This document shows positions 45,380 through 52,851 of a DNA stretch of 64,000 bases, in pieces. Position 1 is the first letter of the stretch. Every line of letters begins with the position of its first letter. The notes under the pieces are model-generated. The model saw nothing but the letters and a program-made list of their open reading frames with translations, was not told the DNA's origin and did not search any database. Position numbers and translations under genes: made by a program. The stretch is from Deltaproteobacteria bacterium (GTDB taxonomy: Bacteria > Myxococcota_A > Polyangia > Fen-1088), in contig JANRKS010000034.1 in the NCBI GenBank assembly GCA_033763315.1, forward strand, positions 96,001-160,000, in the 5' to 3' direction.

Positions 45380-45787
45380 TTAGCCTTCGGTTTTGGGACC
45401 CGCGGGGTCTTCGGGCTTAGGTCCCCGCACTTTCGTTTCGGCCTTGGTCTCGGGGATGAGTTTGCCTTCATCGTTGGGCCGAAAACGAATCTCGGCTTTC
45501 ACCTCTAACGTCATCTTCTGCAGCGCCTTGACGAGCTCCTTGTCCAGGTCCATCCGGTCGAGCCAAGACCGAATCTCTCCGGTGGCCACCCGCAAGATGT
45601 CGTCTTTGGAGCTCTTCGCGGCTTCAAACCCAGCGGAAACGGCACGGCGGAAAAAATCGGACACGCCGCGACCCTTCTCGTCGGAGGGTTCACCAGGCAT
45701 GCCGTCGGACGCGATTGGTTCGGGCTCCGGTGGAACCGAAGAAGGAGACGCTTTGGGTGCAGGGGTGAACCGGCGGTCGGCAGCCAT
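45380..45787 (-). CDS. Hypothetical protein
   Basis: Helical core DFFRRAVSAG..KDDILRVATGEIRSWL..LEVKAEIRF; -10-like TATCCT 9 nt upstream. Confidence 0.65.
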   Translation of the reverse strand: MAADRRFTPAPKASPSSVPPEPEPIASDGMPGEPSDEKGRGVSDFFRRAVSAGFEAAKSSKDDILRVATGEIRSWLDRMDLDKELVKALQKMTLEVKAEIRFRPNDEGKLIPETKAETKVRGPKPEDPAGPKTEG

Positions 45788-45859: not shown

Positions 45860-47812
45860 GTGGGCGCGCGAAATGACAAGACCGAGGAACTGGCGCTGAG
45901 CGACCTTGCCGCAGGGACAATCGCGCCGGCCGAACCGACTCGGCGCCCCACGCCACCGCCGCCCCCAGCCAGCGTCATCGCGGCCAGCCTGTCGCAACCG
46001 CATGCGGCTGCCGCCACGGCGTCCGAGCCGGGGGCCCAAGCGTCAGCGCCCGAACCGCCAACGCCGCCCCCTGCGCCATCGCCGGCCCAAGCGTCAATGC
46101 CGCCCCGGCGACTCACTTTGCCCGGATCTTCGCCGCGCAACGCCGTTCGCCGCTTGTGGCGCGTCTATTTTGTCACCTGCCAAGTCGCGGCTTCGTATCT
46201 TTGGCTGCGGTTGACCGCGCGTTTTCACTCAACCGACGTGGCCGCCGCGGCCGAGGAAAGCGCCCACAAGCGCAACGCCCGCCGCATCAAAGAAGCGGTG
46301 GTGGAGCTGCAGGGCCTGTTCATCAAAGTGGGCCAGCTGATCAGCATCATGGCCAATTTCTTGCCTGAGGCATTCCGCAAGGAGTTGGAAGAGCTGCAAG
46401 ACAAAGTTCCGCCTCGACCCTACGAAGACATCGAAGCGCGTCTGCTTGAGGAATACGGCGGGCGCAAACCGCTTGAAGTTTTCGCTTCGTTCGAACTGCA
46501 TCCCGTGGCTTCGGCTTCGATCGGCCAGGTTCATCGTGCGCGCCTGAACACAGGCGAGGACGTGGCCGTCAAGGTGCAATACCCAGACATCGAAGACATC
46601 GTGCGCGTCGATCTGCGTGCGCTCAAACGCATTTTCTGGGTGCTCAAGCGCTTTTTGCCGGATTGGGGTTTCGATGCCACGTACCGCGAGATTCGCGAGA
46701 TGGTGTTGGCCGAGCTTGATTACAAACAAGAGGCCGATTCGCTGCGCGCCGTGGCCGCCAACTTCGCCGGACGCGCCGATGTCTTGTTTCCCGAGGTGAT
46801 GCCCGGGTATTGCACAAGCCGCGTTCTCGTTACCACGTGGATGGCGGGGCCCAAAGTCGCCGATCTGCGCAGCTTGGAAGCCGAAGGCGTGGATCGAAAA
46901 GCTGTGGCGCGCTTGTTCGTGGATGCCTATTGCCAGCAGATCTTCATCGACGGTTTTTATCACGCAGATCCACACCCAGGAAACCTGCTGGTGCAGCGGC
47001 GCCCCAATGGCACGCCGGCGATTGTGTTCTTGGATTTCGGCGCCACCGCGCATGTGTCCGAAGCCATGCGCAAAGGCATGATGAACTTTCTCGCCGGCGC
47101 GATGACACGCGACACGGCCAAGTTGGTTGCCGCGATGAAAGACATGGGCTTCATCTCGCGCAAAGCGGATCCGGAAGTGTTCGACCGCGTGATCGAATAC
47201 TTTCACGACAAGCTACGCGCCGAGGTCATGGTGGATGGCTTCTCGCTCAAAGACATTCGTTTCGACGCTGAACAAAAGCTCGAAAGCCTTTTGGATTTGC
47301 GGGAAATGAATGTCTCGCTTGGGGATCTTCGTGACGCCTTTCACGTGCCCAAAGATTGGGTGCTGCTTGAGCGGGCGCTGCTGTTGCTTCTGGGCGTTTG
47401 CACCACGCTTGATCCAGAGATGAACCCAGCGCAAACCATCAAACCTTACCTCGAGCGCTTCTTGGTGGGAAAAGGCCAAGATCTGGGCGACGCCGCCATG
47501 GACGCCGCCCGCGAGGCCGCACTTTCGGCCTTGGCGTTGCCGGGCGAATTGCGCCGCTTCTTAACGCAAGCCAACCGCGGCGACGTGAAAGTCACGGTCG
47601 CCAACCTGCAGGACAGCGCGCGGCTGGTGTACGCGGTCGGCCAGCAGTTGCTGTGGGGGCTTTTGGCGGCGACCTCGGCGGTGTTGGCCGTGGTGTTTGA
47701 TGGTCGCGGGCAAATGGGTGCCCGTAGGTGGGCGATTCTGCTCGGGGTGTTCTTCGGTTTTTTCCTTACCACGAGCTTGTGGGGTGGCCGCCGCGCCAAG
47801 TCGCGGCGTTAG
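45860..47812 (+). CDS. ABC1/AarF/UbiB family atypical kinase
   Basis: FIKVGQ (KxGQ), LQD, ASASIGQVH, VAVKVQYP, ELDY, HADPHPGN, LDFG; C-terminal TMs. Confidence 0.93.
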   Translation: MGARNDKTEELALSDLAAGTIAPAEPTRRPTPPPPPASVIAASLSQPHAAAATASEPGAQASAPEPPTPPPAPSPAQASMPPRRLTLPGSSPRNAVRRLWRVYFVTCQVAASYLWLRLTARFHSTDVAAAAEESAHKRNARRIKEAVVELQGLFIKVGQLISIMANFLPEAFRKELEELQDKVPPRPYEDIEARLLEEYGGRKPLEVFASFELHPVASASIGQVHRARLNTGEDVAVKVQYPDIEDIVRVDLRALKRIFWVLKRFLPDWGFDATYREIREMVLAELDYKQEADSLRAVAANFAGRADVLFPEVMPGYCTSRVLVTTWMAGPKVADLRSLEAEGVDRKAVARLFVDAYCQQIFIDGFYHADPHPGNLLVQRRPNGTPAIVFLDFGATAHVSEAMRKGMMNFLAGAMTRDTAKLVAAMKDMGFISRKADPEVFDRVIEYFHDKLRAEVMVDGFSLKDIRFDAEQKLESLLDLREMNVSLGDLRDAFHVPKDWVLLERALLLLLGVCTTLDPEMNPAQTIKPYLERFLVGKGQDLGDAAMDAAREAALSALALPGELRRFLTQANRGDVKVTVANLQDSARLVYAVGQQLLWGLLAATSAVLAVVFDGRGQMGARRWAILLGVFFGFFLTTSLWGGRRAKSRR

Positions 47813-48103
47813 TGCCTCAAGTCACCGAAGCCTAAAGACGACCTGTAGTAGGATTGCCGTTGGTCCTCCGACTTGCCGTTGGTAGTGAACTGTGTGACAG
47901 TGTAGGCATGGTTGCTGTCATCGGAAATTTTCTCATGGGTGCTGCTGCTTTCGGACTTTTTTGGGCGACGCTGTCTCTCGGACGACGGGCCCAACAATCG
48001 AATGACAGGCGGCCGTTACACAGCTAAGACATTGGCTTGCAAGACACCTCGTGGGGCAACCCCCGAGGCCGTTCGATCGTACGACTTCAGTCCGTTAACG
48101 ACC

Positions 48104-49303
48104 GTGAGTTCGCAAGAAACCCAATTTCAACCCGTTCCTGAAGGAACGAACGGTGACGCCGCGCCCTTGGCTGGGCTTGGACGCCCCGCGGGTGCTGTGC
48201 ATGCGGTGACGGTTGACGGCGAATCACGTCCCCATAGAGCCTCGGGCCCCTTGGACCTGTCGGTTTTCGACAATTTCGACTTAGGCGACCTGGCCTCCAT
48301 CCGCAATCTGCTGCGGGGTGGCTCCGTGATCGATTGGCACCGTGCTTATTTTGAGACCTATGAGCAGGTTGATCGCTTCTTGCGCGTCAACGAATTCGAT
48401 CCCGTGCGGGTGGAAGACATCAATCGTCTTGAGGATCTTCGGGAACGCGCCGTTGAATACCTGGAGCGTCATCTAGGGTTCCGCATTCCTGATGAGCTGG
48501 CCGAAGGCATGCCGGCACGCGATTTGTTCTTGGTGGCGTCAAAGAAGGGCAAGCGACGCGCCCACGCCTGCACCATCTTGAAAGTGATGCACGTGCTGCA
48601 GCACCTTGAAGGGCGCGAGCTGTTGACGCGTTTGCCGATCACGGTCGAGCAGATCTTCCACCTGGTGGAGGAGAAGGTTCTGCGCACGGTGGAAGAGATG
48701 CGCGGGGCCGGTTTCGCCATCGTTGAGTTCGAGTGGAGCCGCAAGAACTCCAACAGCTTGCTGACAAAGTTGATGGCGAAAAAAGAAACCATCGCTGCCC
48801 ACGTTTACGACAAGCTTCGGTTCCGGATGATCACGCAATCGGAGCCTGAGTTGATCCACGTTTTGCGGGAACTCGTGCACCGTTTGGTGCCGTTCAACTA
48901 TGTGATTCCAGGGCAATCGGTCAACGACATCATCGACCTGCGTTCGGTGATTGAAAGCTCGGCACATCTGCAATCGTTCTTGCCTGAACTCGTGGATCTT
49001 TCACAGCAAGCGGCCGACAAGCGTCCTGCCGTTCAAAACGAGTTCTCTGGCCCTAGCTACCGCGTCATCAATTTGGTGGCGGACCTGCCCGTGCGCATCG
49101 ACGCGTATCTCAACAAGACACCTGCCGACCCGGAATTCGAAGACGCGGGCCCGGTTGTGTACGTGCTCACCGAATTTCAAATCATGGATACGCGTACGGC
49201 GCAACGGAACGAGCAGGGCGAGAACAGCCACGCCCGCTATAAAGAGCGCCAAGCAAACCGGGTGCGCGCCCGGCTGATCCACGGTCTTAAAGACCAAGAG
49301 TGA
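48104..49303 (+). CDS. TIGR04552-type myxobacterial protein with RelA/SpoT-synthetase-like motifs
   Basis: LRGGSVIDW N-term; SRK..SL.TKL.AK..YDKLRFR; NEFSG.SYR; EFQI..NEQGENSHARYK; start uncertain. Confidence 0.8.
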   Translation: MSSQETQFQPVPEGTNGDAAPLAGLGRPAGAVHAVTVDGESRPHRASGPLDLSVFDNFDLGDLASIRNLLRGGSVIDWHRAYFETYEQVDRFLRVNEFDPVRVEDINRLEDLRERAVEYLERHLGFRIPDELAEGMPARDLFLVASKKGKRRAHACTILKVMHVLQHLEGRELLTRLPITVEQIFHLVEEKVLRTVEEMRGAGFAIVEFEWSRKNSNSLLTKLMAKKETIAAHVYDKLRFRMITQSEPELIHVLRELVHRLVPFNYVIPGQSVNDIIDLRSVIESSAHLQSFLPELVDLSQQAADKRPAVQNEFSGPSYRVINLVADLPVRIDAYLNKTPADPEFEDAGPVVYVLTEFQIMDTRTAQRNEQGENSHARYKERQANRVRARLIHGLKDQE

Positions 49304-49317
49304 CCGCCGTCACGGTG

Positions 49318-49356
49318 ATTTCTCAAGGCACGCCTGCTCGGTGTTTTGAGGGAAAT
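49318..49356. terminator. Intergenic stem-loop (possible terminator)
   Basis: ATTTC-TCAAGGCAC ... GTGTTTTGA-gg-GAAAT hairpin right after the stop; no clean U-tract. Confidence 0.35.
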
Positions 49357-49528
49357 GATCTTCACTCTTGTCCTGCTATGCCAGCAGCATCCAGTAAATC
49401 TGGCGACGCGAGCGACACGCAAAGGAACCGCTTGATGAAAGCTGCCCCGTTGGTGGCCCCCACGCTGTTCGCAGCCCCGTCTATCTCTCTGGAATCAGGG
49501 ATCGACCCATGCTACAGTGGCCTCGCTT

Positions 49529-52369
49529 ATGCCACAAGGTCCTACAGGGGCGCGTAGCCAAGCCGCTGACGGCGAGCGGCAATTCCCGATCCCGTTCGGG
49601 AATGTAGAGCTTTTGCGCCAACTGTCGACCGATCGGCGTGGCGAGGTCTACATCGCCTCACGCTTGGAGGGCCCCGACCGCCTTTGCGTGGTGAACATTT
49701 TAGGCGAAGCCCTTACGCGTCGCCCAGGCATGCGCGAGGAGCTCCGCGCCGAGGCGGCGTGGCTTGTAAGTCGCGTGCACGGCAATCTGGTGCAGATCTA
49801 CGACGTAGGGTCCACCGAACACGCGGGTGGGCCAGCCCGCAGGCCCGAATCGTGGGTCGGGCCGTTGCCTCAATCGCCTGATCAAGATCGCCTGTTTTTC
49901 ACGTGCGAATTGGTCGAGGGCCGCGATCTAGCCACATTCCTCAAGCGCGCCGAGGGCAGCGCCGTGCGCGTGCCGCCGGAGCTCGCGGTGCATTTGGCAA
50001 TGGAAGTGGCGTTTGCCTTGGAGTTCATTCGCGGCAATGAACACAAAGCCACGGGCGTTCCCTCGACCTGCGTGGGTTTGCACGCGGGCGCCGTATTGTT
50101 GGGCGTCGATGGCGCCGTTAAGCTCACGCACTATGGCTCGTGCCTCGCCCCCAGCATCGGCGACCTCGAAGATGCCGACGTAGGGCGTGCGTCTTTGCTT
50201 CCGCCCGAAGTGGCGCGCGGCGAATTTCCGTCTGAACGGTCTGATGTGTTCGCGGTGGCCTCGCTTTTGTGGCAAACACTCACCGGCCGTCCGCTTGCCG
50301 TTAAAGGCACGAAGCCGCACATCGAGGCCATGCGGCAGGGCCATTGGGTGGCCGAGCCCCCTTCAAAGCTCGAAGGCCCCGTGCGATCGATTCCGAAGGA
50401 GCTCGATACACTGATCCTGCAGGCGCTTGATGCGGATCCTGACAAGCGTCCGGCGGATGTGGCTGCGTTTCGCGCCGAGCTCGCGGCCTTTCAAAAGGCG
50501 CGCAACGTGCCAGTGGGCCCGTCAGAAGTGCGCAGTTTCGTCGCCGAGCTTTTTGGGCGAGAGCTGTCTGAAGATGCGGCGGCTTTCACAGCGCTGGCCG
50601 CACGCGTGGAAGCGGAAAGCCCCGTGGCACCTCCCGGCGGCCGCAACACCACCAACACGCTCACCGATTTTCACGCGCGCCGCAAACGCACGCCGTTGCA
50701 AAGCGAACGCGAACTTGCGATTGGCGAAGTCATCCCGGGATCACGTTACCGCGCGCTTGCGAAGTTAGGTGAAGGCGGCATGGGCGTGGTCTATGCGGCC
50801 GAACACGTCGACATAGAAAAGCGTGTGGCGCTCAAGTTGTTGCACGCTGATTTGCTTGAAAACCAGCACGTTCTTCAGCAATTTCGGCAAGAGGCGCGGG
50901 CTGCTTCGCGCATTGGCAATCCTTACATTTGCGACGTGACGGACTGGGGCGAGGTGGCCGATGGCCGCGTCTTCTTCGTCATGGAGTATCTCGACGGCGC
51001 TTCGCTTTCGCGCGAGATCAAGCGCTGCCGGCGGTTGCCTCCTGAACGTGCCATTCCGATCTTGCGCCAAGTGGCCAAAGCGTTGGGCGCGGCTCATCAA
51101 AAGGGCATCGTTCACTTGGACATGAAGCCCGACAACGTGCTTCTCATCGAGAAGGATGGCCGCCGCGATTACGTCAAGGTCGTGGACTTCGGCATCGCTG
51201 GGTTGCTGGGCCAAGCGGGCATCGGTGGCAAAGTGATGGGCACGCCAGAGTACATGGCGCCCGAACGCACGATGGGTGGCGGCAACGATCGCCGCAGCGA
51301 CATCTATGCACTAGGCGTGATGGCGTACGAGATGTTGGCGGGCGAAGTGCCATTTCAGGGCGTGACCGCGGTGGAGACCTTGGCCATGCACGCCACCGAT
51401 GCTCCCGATCCCATCAACGAGCGCGTCACCAAGAGCATTCCAAAAGCGCTTGAGGACGTCGTGATGCGGATGTTGGAAAAGGATCCGCTTTCGCGCCCAC
51501 AAACGATGGCTGAGGTCGAGGCCTTGTTGTGCGAAGCGCAGCTCGACGCGCGCGTTAAAACGGGTTGGGACGACTTGCCGATCCCGCAAGTTGATCCGAC
51601 GCGGGCGGAACGCTTGGTGAAGCGTTATCGGTCGCACGCTTCGCCTCGCACAACGATGATCTTTGCCGCCGCTGCTGCGGTCGTGTTGGCGGTGGTGGGC
51701 GTGGCTGTCGTTGCGTTGTCCCGATCGCCCGTGCAGGTCGTTGTGGAGAACAACCCGGCTACCGTTCCCACCTCACAGGATCCCGAGTCCGTGATGGCGA
51801 AGGCGGCTGTCATTCCCTCAGCCGAGGCACCCAGGCCTCCCGCGGCTCCTGTGCCGCCGCCCGTGGTGGAGCCCGAACGACGACCTGTGGCGGCGCGGCC
51901 TCGTTCAAAGGCCGAACCCGAGACACCGCCTTCAAGCGCAAAAGCTCAAGCCGCAAACGCTGACGAGCCGCGTGAATCCGAAGAGGCGGGCAGCAAACGC
52001 TCAGGCGATCGGGCGCGTGCCAAAGAAGCGGCCGACCGAGGCATGATCGCTTTGGACTCCGGCCAATACAAATTGGCGCGGCAAGAGTTCGACGCGGCCA
52101 TTCGCGCTGATGCCAACTACGCACCTGCTGTGGGCGGTTTGGCTGAAGTTGATTTTGAAGAGTCCAGTTATCAAAGCGCCGCGAAGCTCGCCAGCAAGGC
52201 GGTGCGCCTATCTCCGAACGTGCGCTACTTGATGCTGCTGGGTGACGCCTACTCGAAACTGAAACAGTTCGAAAACGCCGTCGGTGCCTATGAAAAAGCG
52301 CGCGCGTTGGATCCAGGCAACGCCGACATCACGCGCCGCCTGGAACGTGTGAAAGTCTTGGTTCCTTAG
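49529..52369 (+). CDS. Tandem pseudokinase-Ser/Thr kinase, TM, Pro-rich linker, TPR
   Basis: Domain 1 degenerate; domain 2 GEGGMG, VALK, HLDMKPDN, DFG, GTPEYMAPE; TM IFAAAAAVVLAVVGVAVVAL; TPR LGDAY..A..AYEKARALDP. Confidence 0.92.
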   Translation: MPQGPTGARSQAADGERQFPIPFGNVELLRQLSTDRRGEVYIASRLEGPDRLCVVNILGEALTRRPGMREELRAEAAWLVSRVHGNLVQIYDVGSTEHAGGPARRPESWVGPLPQSPDQDRLFFTCELVEGRDLATFLKRAEGSAVRVPPELAVHLAMEVAFALEFIRGNEHKATGVPSTCVGLHAGAVLLGVDGAVKLTHYGSCLAPSIGDLEDADVGRASLLPPEVARGEFPSERSDVFAVASLLWQTLTGRPLAVKGTKPHIEAMRQGHWVAEPPSKLEGPVRSIPKELDTLILQALDADPDKRPADVAAFRAELAAFQKARNVPVGPSEVRSFVAELFGRELSEDAAAFTALAARVEAESPVAPPGGRNTTNTLTDFHARRKRTPLQSERELAIGEVIPGSRYRALAKLGEGGMGVVYAAEHVDIEKRVALKLLHADLLENQHVLQQFRQEARAASRIGNPYICDVTDWGEVADGRVFFVMEYLDGASLSREIKRCRRLPPERAIPILRQVAKALGAAHQKGIVHLDMKPDNVLLIEKDGRRDYVKVVDFGIAGLLGQAGIGGKVMGTPEYMAPERTMGGGNDRRSDIYALGVMAYEMLAGEVPFQGVTAVETLAMHATDAPDPINERVTKSIPKALEDVVMRMLEKDPLSRPQTMAEVEALLCEAQLDARVKTGWDDLPIPQVDPTRAERLVKRYRSHASPRTTMIFAAAAAVVLAVVGVAVVALSRSPVQVVVENNPATVPTSQDPESVMAKAAVIPSAEAPRPPAAPVPPPVVEPERRPVAARPRSKAEPETPPSSAKAQAANADEPRESEEAGSKRSGDRARAKEAADRGMIALDSGQYKLARQEFDAAIRADANYAPAVGGLAEVDFEESSYQSAAKLASKAVRLSPNVRYLMLLGDAYSKLKQFENAVGAYEKARALDPGNADITRRLERVKVLVP

Positions 52370-52386: not shown

Positions 52387-52851
52387 TCAGGTTGCGCTGA
52401 ACACGCCCGAGGCGTCTGCGTCTTGCGGCCACGGCTGGGGCAGTGATGTGTGGCCGACATTGAATGTAGAAGCGCGGTCCAACATGAACACAAGCTCGTC
52501 GTCCCGTAGACGCTTGGATTCCGGAAACACCAAGTAGACGAGCGCTCGTACATCGCCGCGTTTGTCGTGCACTGGCAACGCCACGGCGCTTTCCTCCGGC
52601 AATGGACTCAGCGGCGCAAAGCGCGTGGGACGCTTACGGCCTGTGCACGTGGAAAGAGCCGCGTTGCGCTCGAACGCCAGACCGGCCAAGCCTTGACCGC
52701 GGGAAACAACGCGTGCGCTTGCCACCACCAGCGGTGGCAGCTGATAAGCCGCGACCATCAGAAGAAGCCCGCTGTCCCCTCGTTCGTAAACGATTCCGGC
52801 CACGGCTTGATGCTCACGCACAAACTTCCTGAGCCATGCATCTGCGTCCAC
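52387..52851 (-). CDS. Stand-alone GAF domain protein
   Basis: LLMVAAY.LP, GQGLAGLAFER, AVALPV..RGDVRAL. Confidence 0.72.
   Translation of the reverse strand: MDADAWLRKFVREHQAVAGIVYERGDSGLLLMVAAYQLPPLVVASARVVSRGQGLAGLAFERNAALSTCTGRKRPTRFAPLSPLPEESAVALPVHDKRGDVRALVYLVFPESKRLRDDELVFMLDRASTFNVGHTSLPQPWPQDADASGVFSAT

Follow-up and report, generated by a model that had tools for sequence, protein, structure and literature searches.

(p)ppGpp signalling starts myxobacterial development, and the locus described here raises the question of whether a large family annotated simply as 'TIGR04552 family protein' adds a further synthetase of the RelA/SpoT homologue (RSH) type to this biology. The window is the whole stretch of DNA that was analysed, 64,000 nucleotides from a Deltaproteobacteria bacterium of the Polyangia (contig JANRKS010000034.1, positions 96,001 to 160,000 of the forward strand), and the gene in question lies on its plus strand at 48104..49303. 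A preliminary description made from the letters of the window had proposed that the product is an unrecognised nucleotide-messenger synthetase of the RelA/SpoT type. We found that profile comparisons, Pfam matches on family members and the predicted fold all agree with a RelA/SpoT-type synthetase domain, and that, as known here from computation, TIGR04552 forms a branch of its own within the RSH synthetase superfamily, one that has diverged deeply.

The longest frame in the window's list of open reading frames (ORFs), 47912..49303 (+), has 463 amino acids. An in-frame GTG at 48104 gives a protein of 399 amino acids that ends at a TGA stop codon (49301-49303), and a 399-amino-acid protein identical to it is already on record. 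Since the in-frame stretch upstream (47912-48103) shows hardly any conservation, even among members of the genus (34% identity over 62 amino acids, E=0.006), 48104 was accepted as a reasonable start of the TIGR04552 gene. The protein scored 335.3 bits against NCBIfam TIGR04552 (curated cut-off 125, E=4.6e-100), with residues 62-392 lying on profile positions 4-351/352, and nearly as much, 319.2 bits, against NCBIfam TIGR04562. The sole Pfam match at E≤10 was PF04607 (RelA_SpoT), which covered residues 214-262 and model positions 4-50 with an E-value of 7.8e-4.

Relatives of the window protein found at E≤1e-3 fell into 753 clusters at 50% identity, 169 of them with a representative at E≤1e-30. 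Conservation was read from an alignment of 73 full-length members, 27-70% identical to the window protein, and from a further set of 16 members that belong to other families within the phylum and go down to 23% identity. When a profile of 73 members was run against 177,635 PDB sequences, four matches were obtained at E≤10 and all four were RSH synthetases: Bacillus subtilis RelP/YwaC (6fgk, E=0.0032), Staphylococcus aureus Rel (7oiw, 0.0085) and Escherichia coli RelA (0.65 and 0.67). The preliminary description had matched four stretches to RSH motifs, namely SRKNSNSLLTKLMAK (residues 212-226), VYDKLRFRMI (234-243), GPSYRVI (316-322) and TEFQIMDTRTAQRNEQGENSHARYK (TEFQIMD...HARYK, 356-380). 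The unguided HMMER alignment paired these same stretches with KSRVKSFESIVNKLMRK, IHDIAGVRII, GYRSLH and EIQIRT..MH..AEHGVAAHWAYK of RelP, Rel and RelA, and they are also the best-conserved columns of the family, so that the motifs are not there by chance.

Furthermore, PF04607 was matched at E≤0.01 by 31 of the 73 diverse members (best 4.2e-6). When 61 genomes of the phylum were searched with Pfam in six frames, nine weak PF04607 matches lay on TIGR04552 genes, and three of these reached the Pfam cut-off over model positions 4-112/113. We then used hhalign to compare the 73-member profile with 40 aligned synthetase domains of the same phylum, 30 of them from long RSH and 10 resembling small alarmone synthetases (SAS). 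The two aligned over 123 columns with a probability of 96.5% (E=8.6e-10), whereas the controls, one reversed and five with shuffled columns, stayed at probabilities of 0.1-0.7%. In both HMMER and hhalign the C-terminal motif aligned without gaps and in register with EIQIRT..MH..AE.G.AAHW.YK of Rel and RelA. The word 'unrecognised' in the preliminary description was too strong in one respect, since Pfam RelA_SpoT is precomputed on a few members (P0014, P0023) and three orthologues reach the cut-off. Literature searches on TIGR04552, MXAN_4858 and myxobacterial SAS found no paper in the library searched that links the family to RSH.

The predicted structure pointed in the same direction. A full-length AlphaFold2 (AF2) model built on the 73-member alignment had a predicted local distance difference test score (pLDDT) of 85.9 and a predicted TM-score (pTM) of 0.83, with residues 1-46 disordered. 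Foldseek against the PDB returned 21 matches at E≤1e-3 for this model, and the matches listed (24, down to rank 48) were all RSH proteins, comprising RelP, RelQ, Rel, RelA and CapRel. A second AF2 model, of residues 138-399 (262 residues, pLDDT 75.6), gave 32 matches at E≤1e-3, the best being RelP 6ex0 (E=1.8e-6, TM-score 0.51 by target), and all of the 23 matches listed were again RSH. A predicted structure lacking the RSH fold, the outcome that the preliminary description had set against its own proposal, was therefore seen with neither model among the matches listed. The predicted fold is that of a RelP/RelQ/Rel-type alpha/beta pyrophosphokinase with its core at about residues 138-399. As the model of this C-terminal domain aligned over 225-248 columns to RelP and RelQ chains of 185-203 residues, which is nearly their full length, we infer that the two long helices at residues 150-201 are part of the synthetase core, that residues 138-201 (48515..48706), which precede the beta-sheet, are the counterpart of the RelP/RelQ N-terminal helices, and that the truly new part is restricted to about residues 52-137. 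Residues 138-201 include the always-basic position 160 (codon 48581-48583).

The N-terminal portion was found to be peculiar to the family. Residues 1-46 (48104..48241) form a poorly conserved tail with pLDDT below 50, and alignments with relatives from other genera mostly begin at about residues 22-59. Residues 52-137 (48257..48514) form a helical extension with pLDDT above 90 in its helices, in which L70, G72, S74 and D77 are nearly invariant; it contains the GGSVIDW motif (residues 72-78), on which the preliminary description had based a distinct N-terminal domain. That assignment is borne out, in that an ESM Atlas search with residues 50-205 recovered the protein's own family at TM-scores of 0.81-0.96 and other proteins at no more than 0.37; a known fold was hence rejected for this part. 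The feature matches of 0.81-0.82 returned by the same search do not rise above chance on the figures given by the tool itself. A degenerate HD hydrolase was also considered and rejected, since hhalign against 30 Rel N-terminal halves aligned the synthetase (SYNTH) part alone, with a second match at 0.1%. Together with the finding that the window protein has no Pfam match to HD, TGS or ACT and ends 20 residues past its HxxYK motif, this upheld the earlier view that hydrolase and regulatory domains are missing. No longer fused forms of TIGR04552 were seen among 8000 candidates of 700-2000 amino acids, which is weak evidence.

Within the core, the best-conserved columns of the 73-member alignment coincide with the RSH catalytic positions. 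Residues 206-227 (48719..48784) comprise strand beta1 and a basic helix, x-R-K214-xxx-S218-xxx-K222-xxx-K226, which by its HMMER alignment to RelP KSRVKSFESIVNKLMRK, its Pfam match, its conservation and the roles described for FaRel2 (PMC11782079) is the putative triphosphate-binding helix; K214 is found in 71, S218 in 67 and K222 in 69 of the 73 members. Strand beta2 follows at residues 234-244 (48803..48835) with Asp236 (71/73) as the predicted Mg2+ ligand, Arg239, and Arg241 (67/73) as the predicted adenine-stacking residue, by analogy with D264 and R269 of RelSeq (PMC7983052). The strand at residues 312-331 (49037..49096), NEFSGxxY319R...P329, carries the likely counterpart of the G-loop tyrosine, HMMER aligning sYrvinfvvdlPv to RelP GYRSLHLIIEMPV; residue 319 is Tyr in 53 members and Phe in 18 and hence aromatic in 71 of 73, and P329 is present in all 73. 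At residues 351-383 (49154..49252) a strand with E357-x-Q359 (72/73 and 69/73) is followed by N369, G372, H376 (68/73), Y379 (70/73) and K380 (67/73), in a conserved stretch that has a gap-free alignment to Rel and RelA. The long C-terminal helix of the AF2 model spans residues 376-397 (49229..49294), with R382, Q383, R390 and L391 conserved. In addition, K214, S218, K222, D236, R241, E357, Q359, H376, Y379 and K380 were all kept in 16 of the 16 further members.

These positions were compared with what has been described for two RSH enzymes. In FaRel2 the triphosphate of the donor ATP is held by R64, K66, S70, K74 and R77 and Mg2+ by D90, the adenine is contacted by R64, G93, R95 and Q147, and E145 confers adenosine specificity (PMC11782079). 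In RelSeq the adenine is sandwiched by R241 and R269, D264 and E323 are catalytic, and the guanine of the acceptor is contacted by K304/K305 and N306, just before Y308 (PMC7983052). By alignment, the donor and catalytic set has its counterparts in TIGR04552 at K214, S218, K222, D236, R241, E357 and Q359, and the donor chemistry looks preserved. The first arginine of the RxK motif (R64 in FaRel2, R241 in RelSeq) aligns with a Ser or Gly at position 212, and the glycine of the D..G.R motif is Arg239 in 71 of 73 members. The motif order proposed in the preliminary description stands for all four motifs, which are present and aligned by HMMER, and the match is imperfect at these two residues. The Asn that it had noted in place of the His after the G-loop Tyr (N323) is present in 43 of 73 members, and five of the 16 further members have the canonical His; five of the 16 also have the canonical Gly at position 239.

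On the acceptor side, the RelSeq guanine-contact residues have no conserved counterpart, positions 317-318 before Y319 being variable among the 73 members. Residues 263-274 (48890..48925) form a family-specific block, PFNYV(I/V)PGxSxN, in which P263, N265 and N274 are nearly invariant; it is only weakly aligned to RSH and runs into hhalign gaps. It is followed by an insertion of 37 residues relative to RSH (275-311, 48926..49036), predicted as two short helices and a low-confidence loop, residues 301-310 having the lowest pLDDT (58) outside the disordered N-terminus. The insertion before the Tyr motif that had been noted from the sequence is thus recovered as an hhalign gap with low pLDDT, and with the missing guanine contacts and the new invariant block it fits the earlier suggestion of an altered acceptor pocket. 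Residue 160, on the helix that precedes the beta-sheet, is Lys in 73 of 73 members and Lys or Arg in 16 of 16 further members, so that it is basic in all 89. We also observed that three sites covary within the further members: a divergent subgroup (L156-L159 and L169, 23-29% identical to the window protein) has G239, a non-Arg residue at 213 and R160, and the remaining 11 of 16 have R239, R213 and K160. The subgroup lacks the PFN part of the PFNYV(I/V)PGxSxN block, and it may correspond to the TIGR04562 model.

From these comparisons a mechanism can be proposed. ATP-Mg2+ would be bound as the donor, and its beta,gamma-pyrophosphate would be passed to the 3'-OH of an acceptor stacked on Tyr319, the aromatic G-loop residue. 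The helix carrying K214, S218 and K222 would bind the triphosphate, Asp236 and Glu357 would serve Mg2+ binding and catalysis, and Arg241 and Gln359 would hold the adenine. The donor site may have been rebuilt, with Arg239 and/or the always-basic residue 160 replacing the missing RxK arginine. The acceptor pocket may have been rebuilt as well, through loss of the guanine-contacting Lys/Asn, gain of the 37-residue insertion and gain of the PFNYVxPGxSxN block, and because of this remodelling the acceptor may not be GDP or GTP.

Among characterised proteins, the closest were the small alarmone synthetases of Firmicutes, RelP (SAS2, YwaC) and RelQ (SAS1, YjbM). RelP gave the best PDB profile match (6fgk), and the two gave the best Foldseek matches (6ex0, 6fgj, 5dec and 5ded, E down to 1.8e-6, probability 1.00). 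Like them, TIGR04552 has a stand-alone synthetase domain without HD, TGS or ACT in a non-toxic, housekeeping-type setting, and the motifs follow the same order of triphosphate helix, Asp strand, G-loop Tyr, ExQ strand and HxxYK. Both RelP and RelQ assemble as tetramers. TIGR04552 differs from both in that identity is 12-16% over the Foldseek alignments, a helical extension of about 85 residues and the 37-residue insertion are added, the RxK arginine is out of register, Arg239 replaces Gly, the guanine contacts are lost, and the PFNYVxPGxSxN block and the basic residue at position 160 occur in this family only. The SYNTH domain of long RSH (Rel, RelA and SpoT; PF04607), to which the hhalign match was made, shares with TIGR04552 the counterparts of D264 and E323; long RSH have HD and TGS/ACT, whereas TIGR04552 has neither and aligns with the SYNTH part alone. 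The toxic enzymes of the superfamily (toxSAS: FaRel, FaRel2, CapRel, PhRel and Tas1) have the same catalytic chemistry as is proposed for TIGR04552, and CapRel 7ztb was among the Foldseek matches, more weakly than RelP and RelQ (E=6.4e-3 to 1.2e-2). Acceptors that had not been expected of RSH enzymes have recently come to light in this group: (pp)pApp is the product of FaRel and Tas1, FaRel2 and CapRel target the CCA end of tRNA, and the N-terminal region of FaRel2 recognises tRNA and so selects the acceptor (PMC11782079). Unlike the patchy, mobile toxSAS modules with their adjacent antitoxin or immunity gene, TIGR04552 is mostly a single-copy core gene and has no conserved partner and no PADLOC match.

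We wanted to gain insight into how widely the gene is spread. It was present in 27 of 31 close relatives, mostly as one copy, and 191 of 301 genomes of the phylum matched TIGR04552 above the curated cut-off compared with none of 14 control genomes. A species-representative collection held at least 561 loci, and the best 80 of these were all from Myxococcota (Polyangia, Kofleriaceae, Haliangium, Nannocystis and 'Myxococcales' metagenome-assembled genomes). A search beyond Myxococcota with query P0270 matched the query itself alone. As hints of the family outside the phylum we observed one ESM Atlas lead and a table row for Bdellovibrio, a 'TIGR04552 family protein' being entered in the mutation table of an evolution paper on Bdellovibrio sp. 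NC01 (PMC9888234). A canonical long RSH of 740 amino acids is encoded in one copy elsewhere in the window's genome, and canonical RSH was present in 61 of 61 sampled genomes of the phylum. We observed further stand-alone RelA_SpoT genes (L064-L073, frames of about 210-580 amino acids) in other genomes of the phylum but not in that of the window, one group of which carries EIQVRT..EHAWAEIEHD.GYK; the phylum therefore holds several SAS-like lineages besides TIGR04552.

The neighbourhood was then compared across loci. In the window the order is a KDPG (2-keto-3-deoxy-6-phosphogluconate) aldolase and a PfkB kinase (-), a small conserved ORF (-), an ABC1/UbiB kinase (+), the TIGR04552 gene (+), a Ser/Thr kinase with TPR (+), a 154-amino-acid ORF (-) and an Lhr helicase (-). 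The comparison covered, besides same-family loci, 26 divergent Polyangia loci (34 of the best 80 with ≤60% identity and usable flanks, minus 8 in which the TIGR04552 gene was uncalled) and 16 phylum-wide loci from other families (20 minus 4 uncalled by the ORF filter). The upstream ABC1/UbiB-type atypical kinase (45860..47812, +; Pfam ABC1, 5.4e-73) preceded the gene at all 12 same-family loci and at 8 of the 26 divergent Polyangia loci, but at none of the 8 and none of the 16 loci in the two other-family sets. The downstream Ser/Thr protein kinase (49517..52369, +; 950 amino acids) has two Pfam Pkinase stretches, an N-terminal kinase-like region and then a full kinase domain at residues 411-664, followed by C-terminal TPR repeats. 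A Ser/Thr-kinase-type gene stood at +1, in convergent orientation, in 12 of the 26 Polyangia loci, an unusually high share, and at +1 in 2 of the 16 phylum-wide loci. The adjoining Polyangia kinases are about 30-35% identical over the kinase domain and not clearly orthologous, and we observed that they differ from the window kinase in architecture and orientation. A functional link to either neighbour was rejected in favour of inherited synteny and the abundance of kinases.

A toxin-antitoxin or defence module was rejected as well: no conserved small partner gene was found in 11, 26 or 21 loci, PADLOC defence models gave no match, and the 85-amino-acid ORF beside the gene (49300-49557) is not conserved. 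TIGR04552 looks like a vertically inherited, autonomous core gene for a housekeeping or regulatory enzyme and not a toxin, because it is mostly single-copy and widespread, with a canonical Rel elsewhere and without an antitoxin-like partner.

Several other observations were made around the gene. Scans for a promoter and a terminator at the TIGR04552 gene gave nothing convincing, and its 290-nucleotide leader had no Rfam match at E≤1 to a riboswitch or other RNA. A GC-rich palindrome, GTGACCGCCGTCAC, at 49300-49313 spans the stop codon and is rated terminator-like on both strands by the scan; its stem of 5 pairs is weak and unconvincing as a terminator. Divergent from the ABC1 gene lies hyp126 (45380-45760, -), a small ORF without a Pfam family; the pair is kept in 10 of 12 same-family loci, and hyp126 is also present in 6 of the 26 divergent loci from Polyangia. 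Because the long ABC1 frame, which starts with GTG, runs into hyp126, translation of ABC1 probably begins further downstream; the Pfam ABC1 domain begins at residue 178. The 154-amino-acid ORF between the kinase and the Lhr helicase (52387-52851, -) has no Pfam family and stands beside Lhr in four same-family loci at 38-62% identity.

On the combined evidence, the TIGR04552 protein is probably an active ATP-dependent pyrophosphokinase with housekeeping character. A number of points weigh against this reading. The window protein itself scores 20.1 bits for PF04607, below the gathering score of 27, and single-sequence phmmer against the PDB returned chance-level matches only (UFL1, RB1CC1 and prephenate dehydratase, E≥0.28). 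Position 212, in the register of the first RxK arginine, is Ser in 36 and Gly in 29 of the 73 members, and position 213 is Arg in only 38; Arg239 and/or residue 160 may take over this role. The neighbourhood offers no functional hint beyond class-level synteny. Finally, Myxococcus xanthus relA mutants reportedly lack starvation-induced (p)ppGpp, which would argue against TIGR04552 as a bulk source of it. If the motifs matched by chance, or if the family had a nucleotidyltransferase fold outside RSH, the weakness of the single-sequence searches, with a Pfam match under the cut-off and nothing relevant from phmmer, and Foldseek TM-scores near 0.5 would be explained. However, four independent methods converge on RSH alone while the reversed and shuffled controls fail, the motifs lie in the same order on matching secondary-structure elements, and some members pass the Pfam cut-off over model positions 4-112/113; we regard such a coincidence as very improbable. 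A catalytically dead RSH derivative that only binds a nucleotide, for example ATP or (p)ppGpp, and serves for sensing or as a scaffold would suit the displaced RxK arginine and an N-terminal extension that could be a protein-interaction module, and inactive RSH domains are known, as in the hydrolase domain of RelA ('RelA monofunctional synthetases', Atkinson 2011, PMC3153485). Pseudo-enzymes, though, normally lose their metal-binding and catalytic residues, whereas here the entire set from D236, E357 and Q359 to K214, S218, K222, H376, Y379 and K380 is kept, also in 16 of 16 further members, and loss of activity seems unlikely.

For an active pyrophosphokinase, the identity of the acceptor divides the remaining explanations. 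The protein could possibly be a small alarmone synthetase that makes (p)ppGpp from ATP and GDP/GTP, and so a second, Rel-independent alarmone source in myxobacteria. This would agree with housekeeping RelP and RelQ as the closest neighbours in both structure and sequence, toxSAS CapRel ranking far lower, with the retained G-loop aromatic residue and H-x-x-Y-K, with the canonical His and Gly in 5 of 16 further members each, and with the many conserved basic residues, which suit a phosphorylated nucleotide acceptor. It fits poorly with the absence of conserved counterparts to the guanine contacts K304/K305 and N306 of RelSeq (PMC7983052), with the insertion and new invariant block beside the acceptor site, and with the transposon-insertion sequencing (Tn-seq) profile of MXAN_4858, which resembles gliding-motility genes and not a stringent-response defect (10.64898/2026.08.28.747804). 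Alternatively, an RSH-type pyrophosphokinase might act on a non-guanosine acceptor, whether adenosine nucleotides to give (pp)pApp, the 3' end of tRNA or RNA, or another metabolite, and we hold this too as a tentative explanation. The acceptor side is remodelled while donor and catalytic residues are kept, RSH enzymes of this kind exist in FaRel, Tas1, FaRel2 and CapRel, and the N-terminal extension echoes the tRNA-recognition region of FaRel2 (PMC11782079). Yet the RSH enzymes so far known to act on adenosine or tRNA are toxins accompanied by an antitoxin or immunity gene, and no such partner is conserved here; TIGR04552 is a mostly single-copy core gene, and Foldseek ranked toxSAS structures well below RelP and RelQ. 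In its fullest form, which we offer as a speculative possibility, the acceptor would not be GDP or GTP and TIGR04552 would be a phylum-wide housekeeping branch that makes a nucleotide messenger new to Myxococcota (and, going by annotation, to Bdellovibrio) or pyrophosphorylates RNA or another target there, its acceptor being set by the N-terminal extension, the PFNYVxPGxSxN block and residue 160 and its output directed to surface motility and multicellular development, for which the gliding-like Tn-seq profile of MXAN_4858 is a hint.

Published work touches the family at few points. In M. xanthus the TIGR04552 gene MXAN_4858 lies close to the glt G1 cluster; transposon insertions in it gave developmental fitness profiles like those of gliding-motility genes, and the passages of that preprint on the gene term it uncharacterised and make no mention of RSH (10.64898/2026.08.28.747804); through this Tn-seq result TIGR04552 is weakly tied to myxobacterial development. 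A classification of RSH proteins distinguishes 30 SAS subfamilies, and its main-text passages on them name no myxobacterial SAS, the per-protein assignments being in Datasets S1/S2 (PMC7229694). An earlier classification describes bdRel, a group of the beta- and delta-proteobacteria (PMC3153485). MixRel was considered as a myxobacterial group and set aside, as the name occurs in an RSH list for Xanthomonas sacchari.

Collectively, these data suggest what a large group of proteins annotated only as 'family protein' (753 clusters, at least 561 loci) may do, and single out D236, E357, Y319, R239 and K160 as residues for mutation. They describe a mostly single-copy RSH-type core enzyme, with its predicted catalytic centre intact and its substrate pockets apparently rebuilt, that roughly two thirds of the genomes sampled across the phylum encode. 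In a phylum whose multicellular development is controlled by (p)ppGpp, a second RSH-type output is thereby indicated, and TIGR04552 is a testable candidate for providing these social and predatory bacteria with either a second source of alarmone or a new signal based on pyrophosphorylation.

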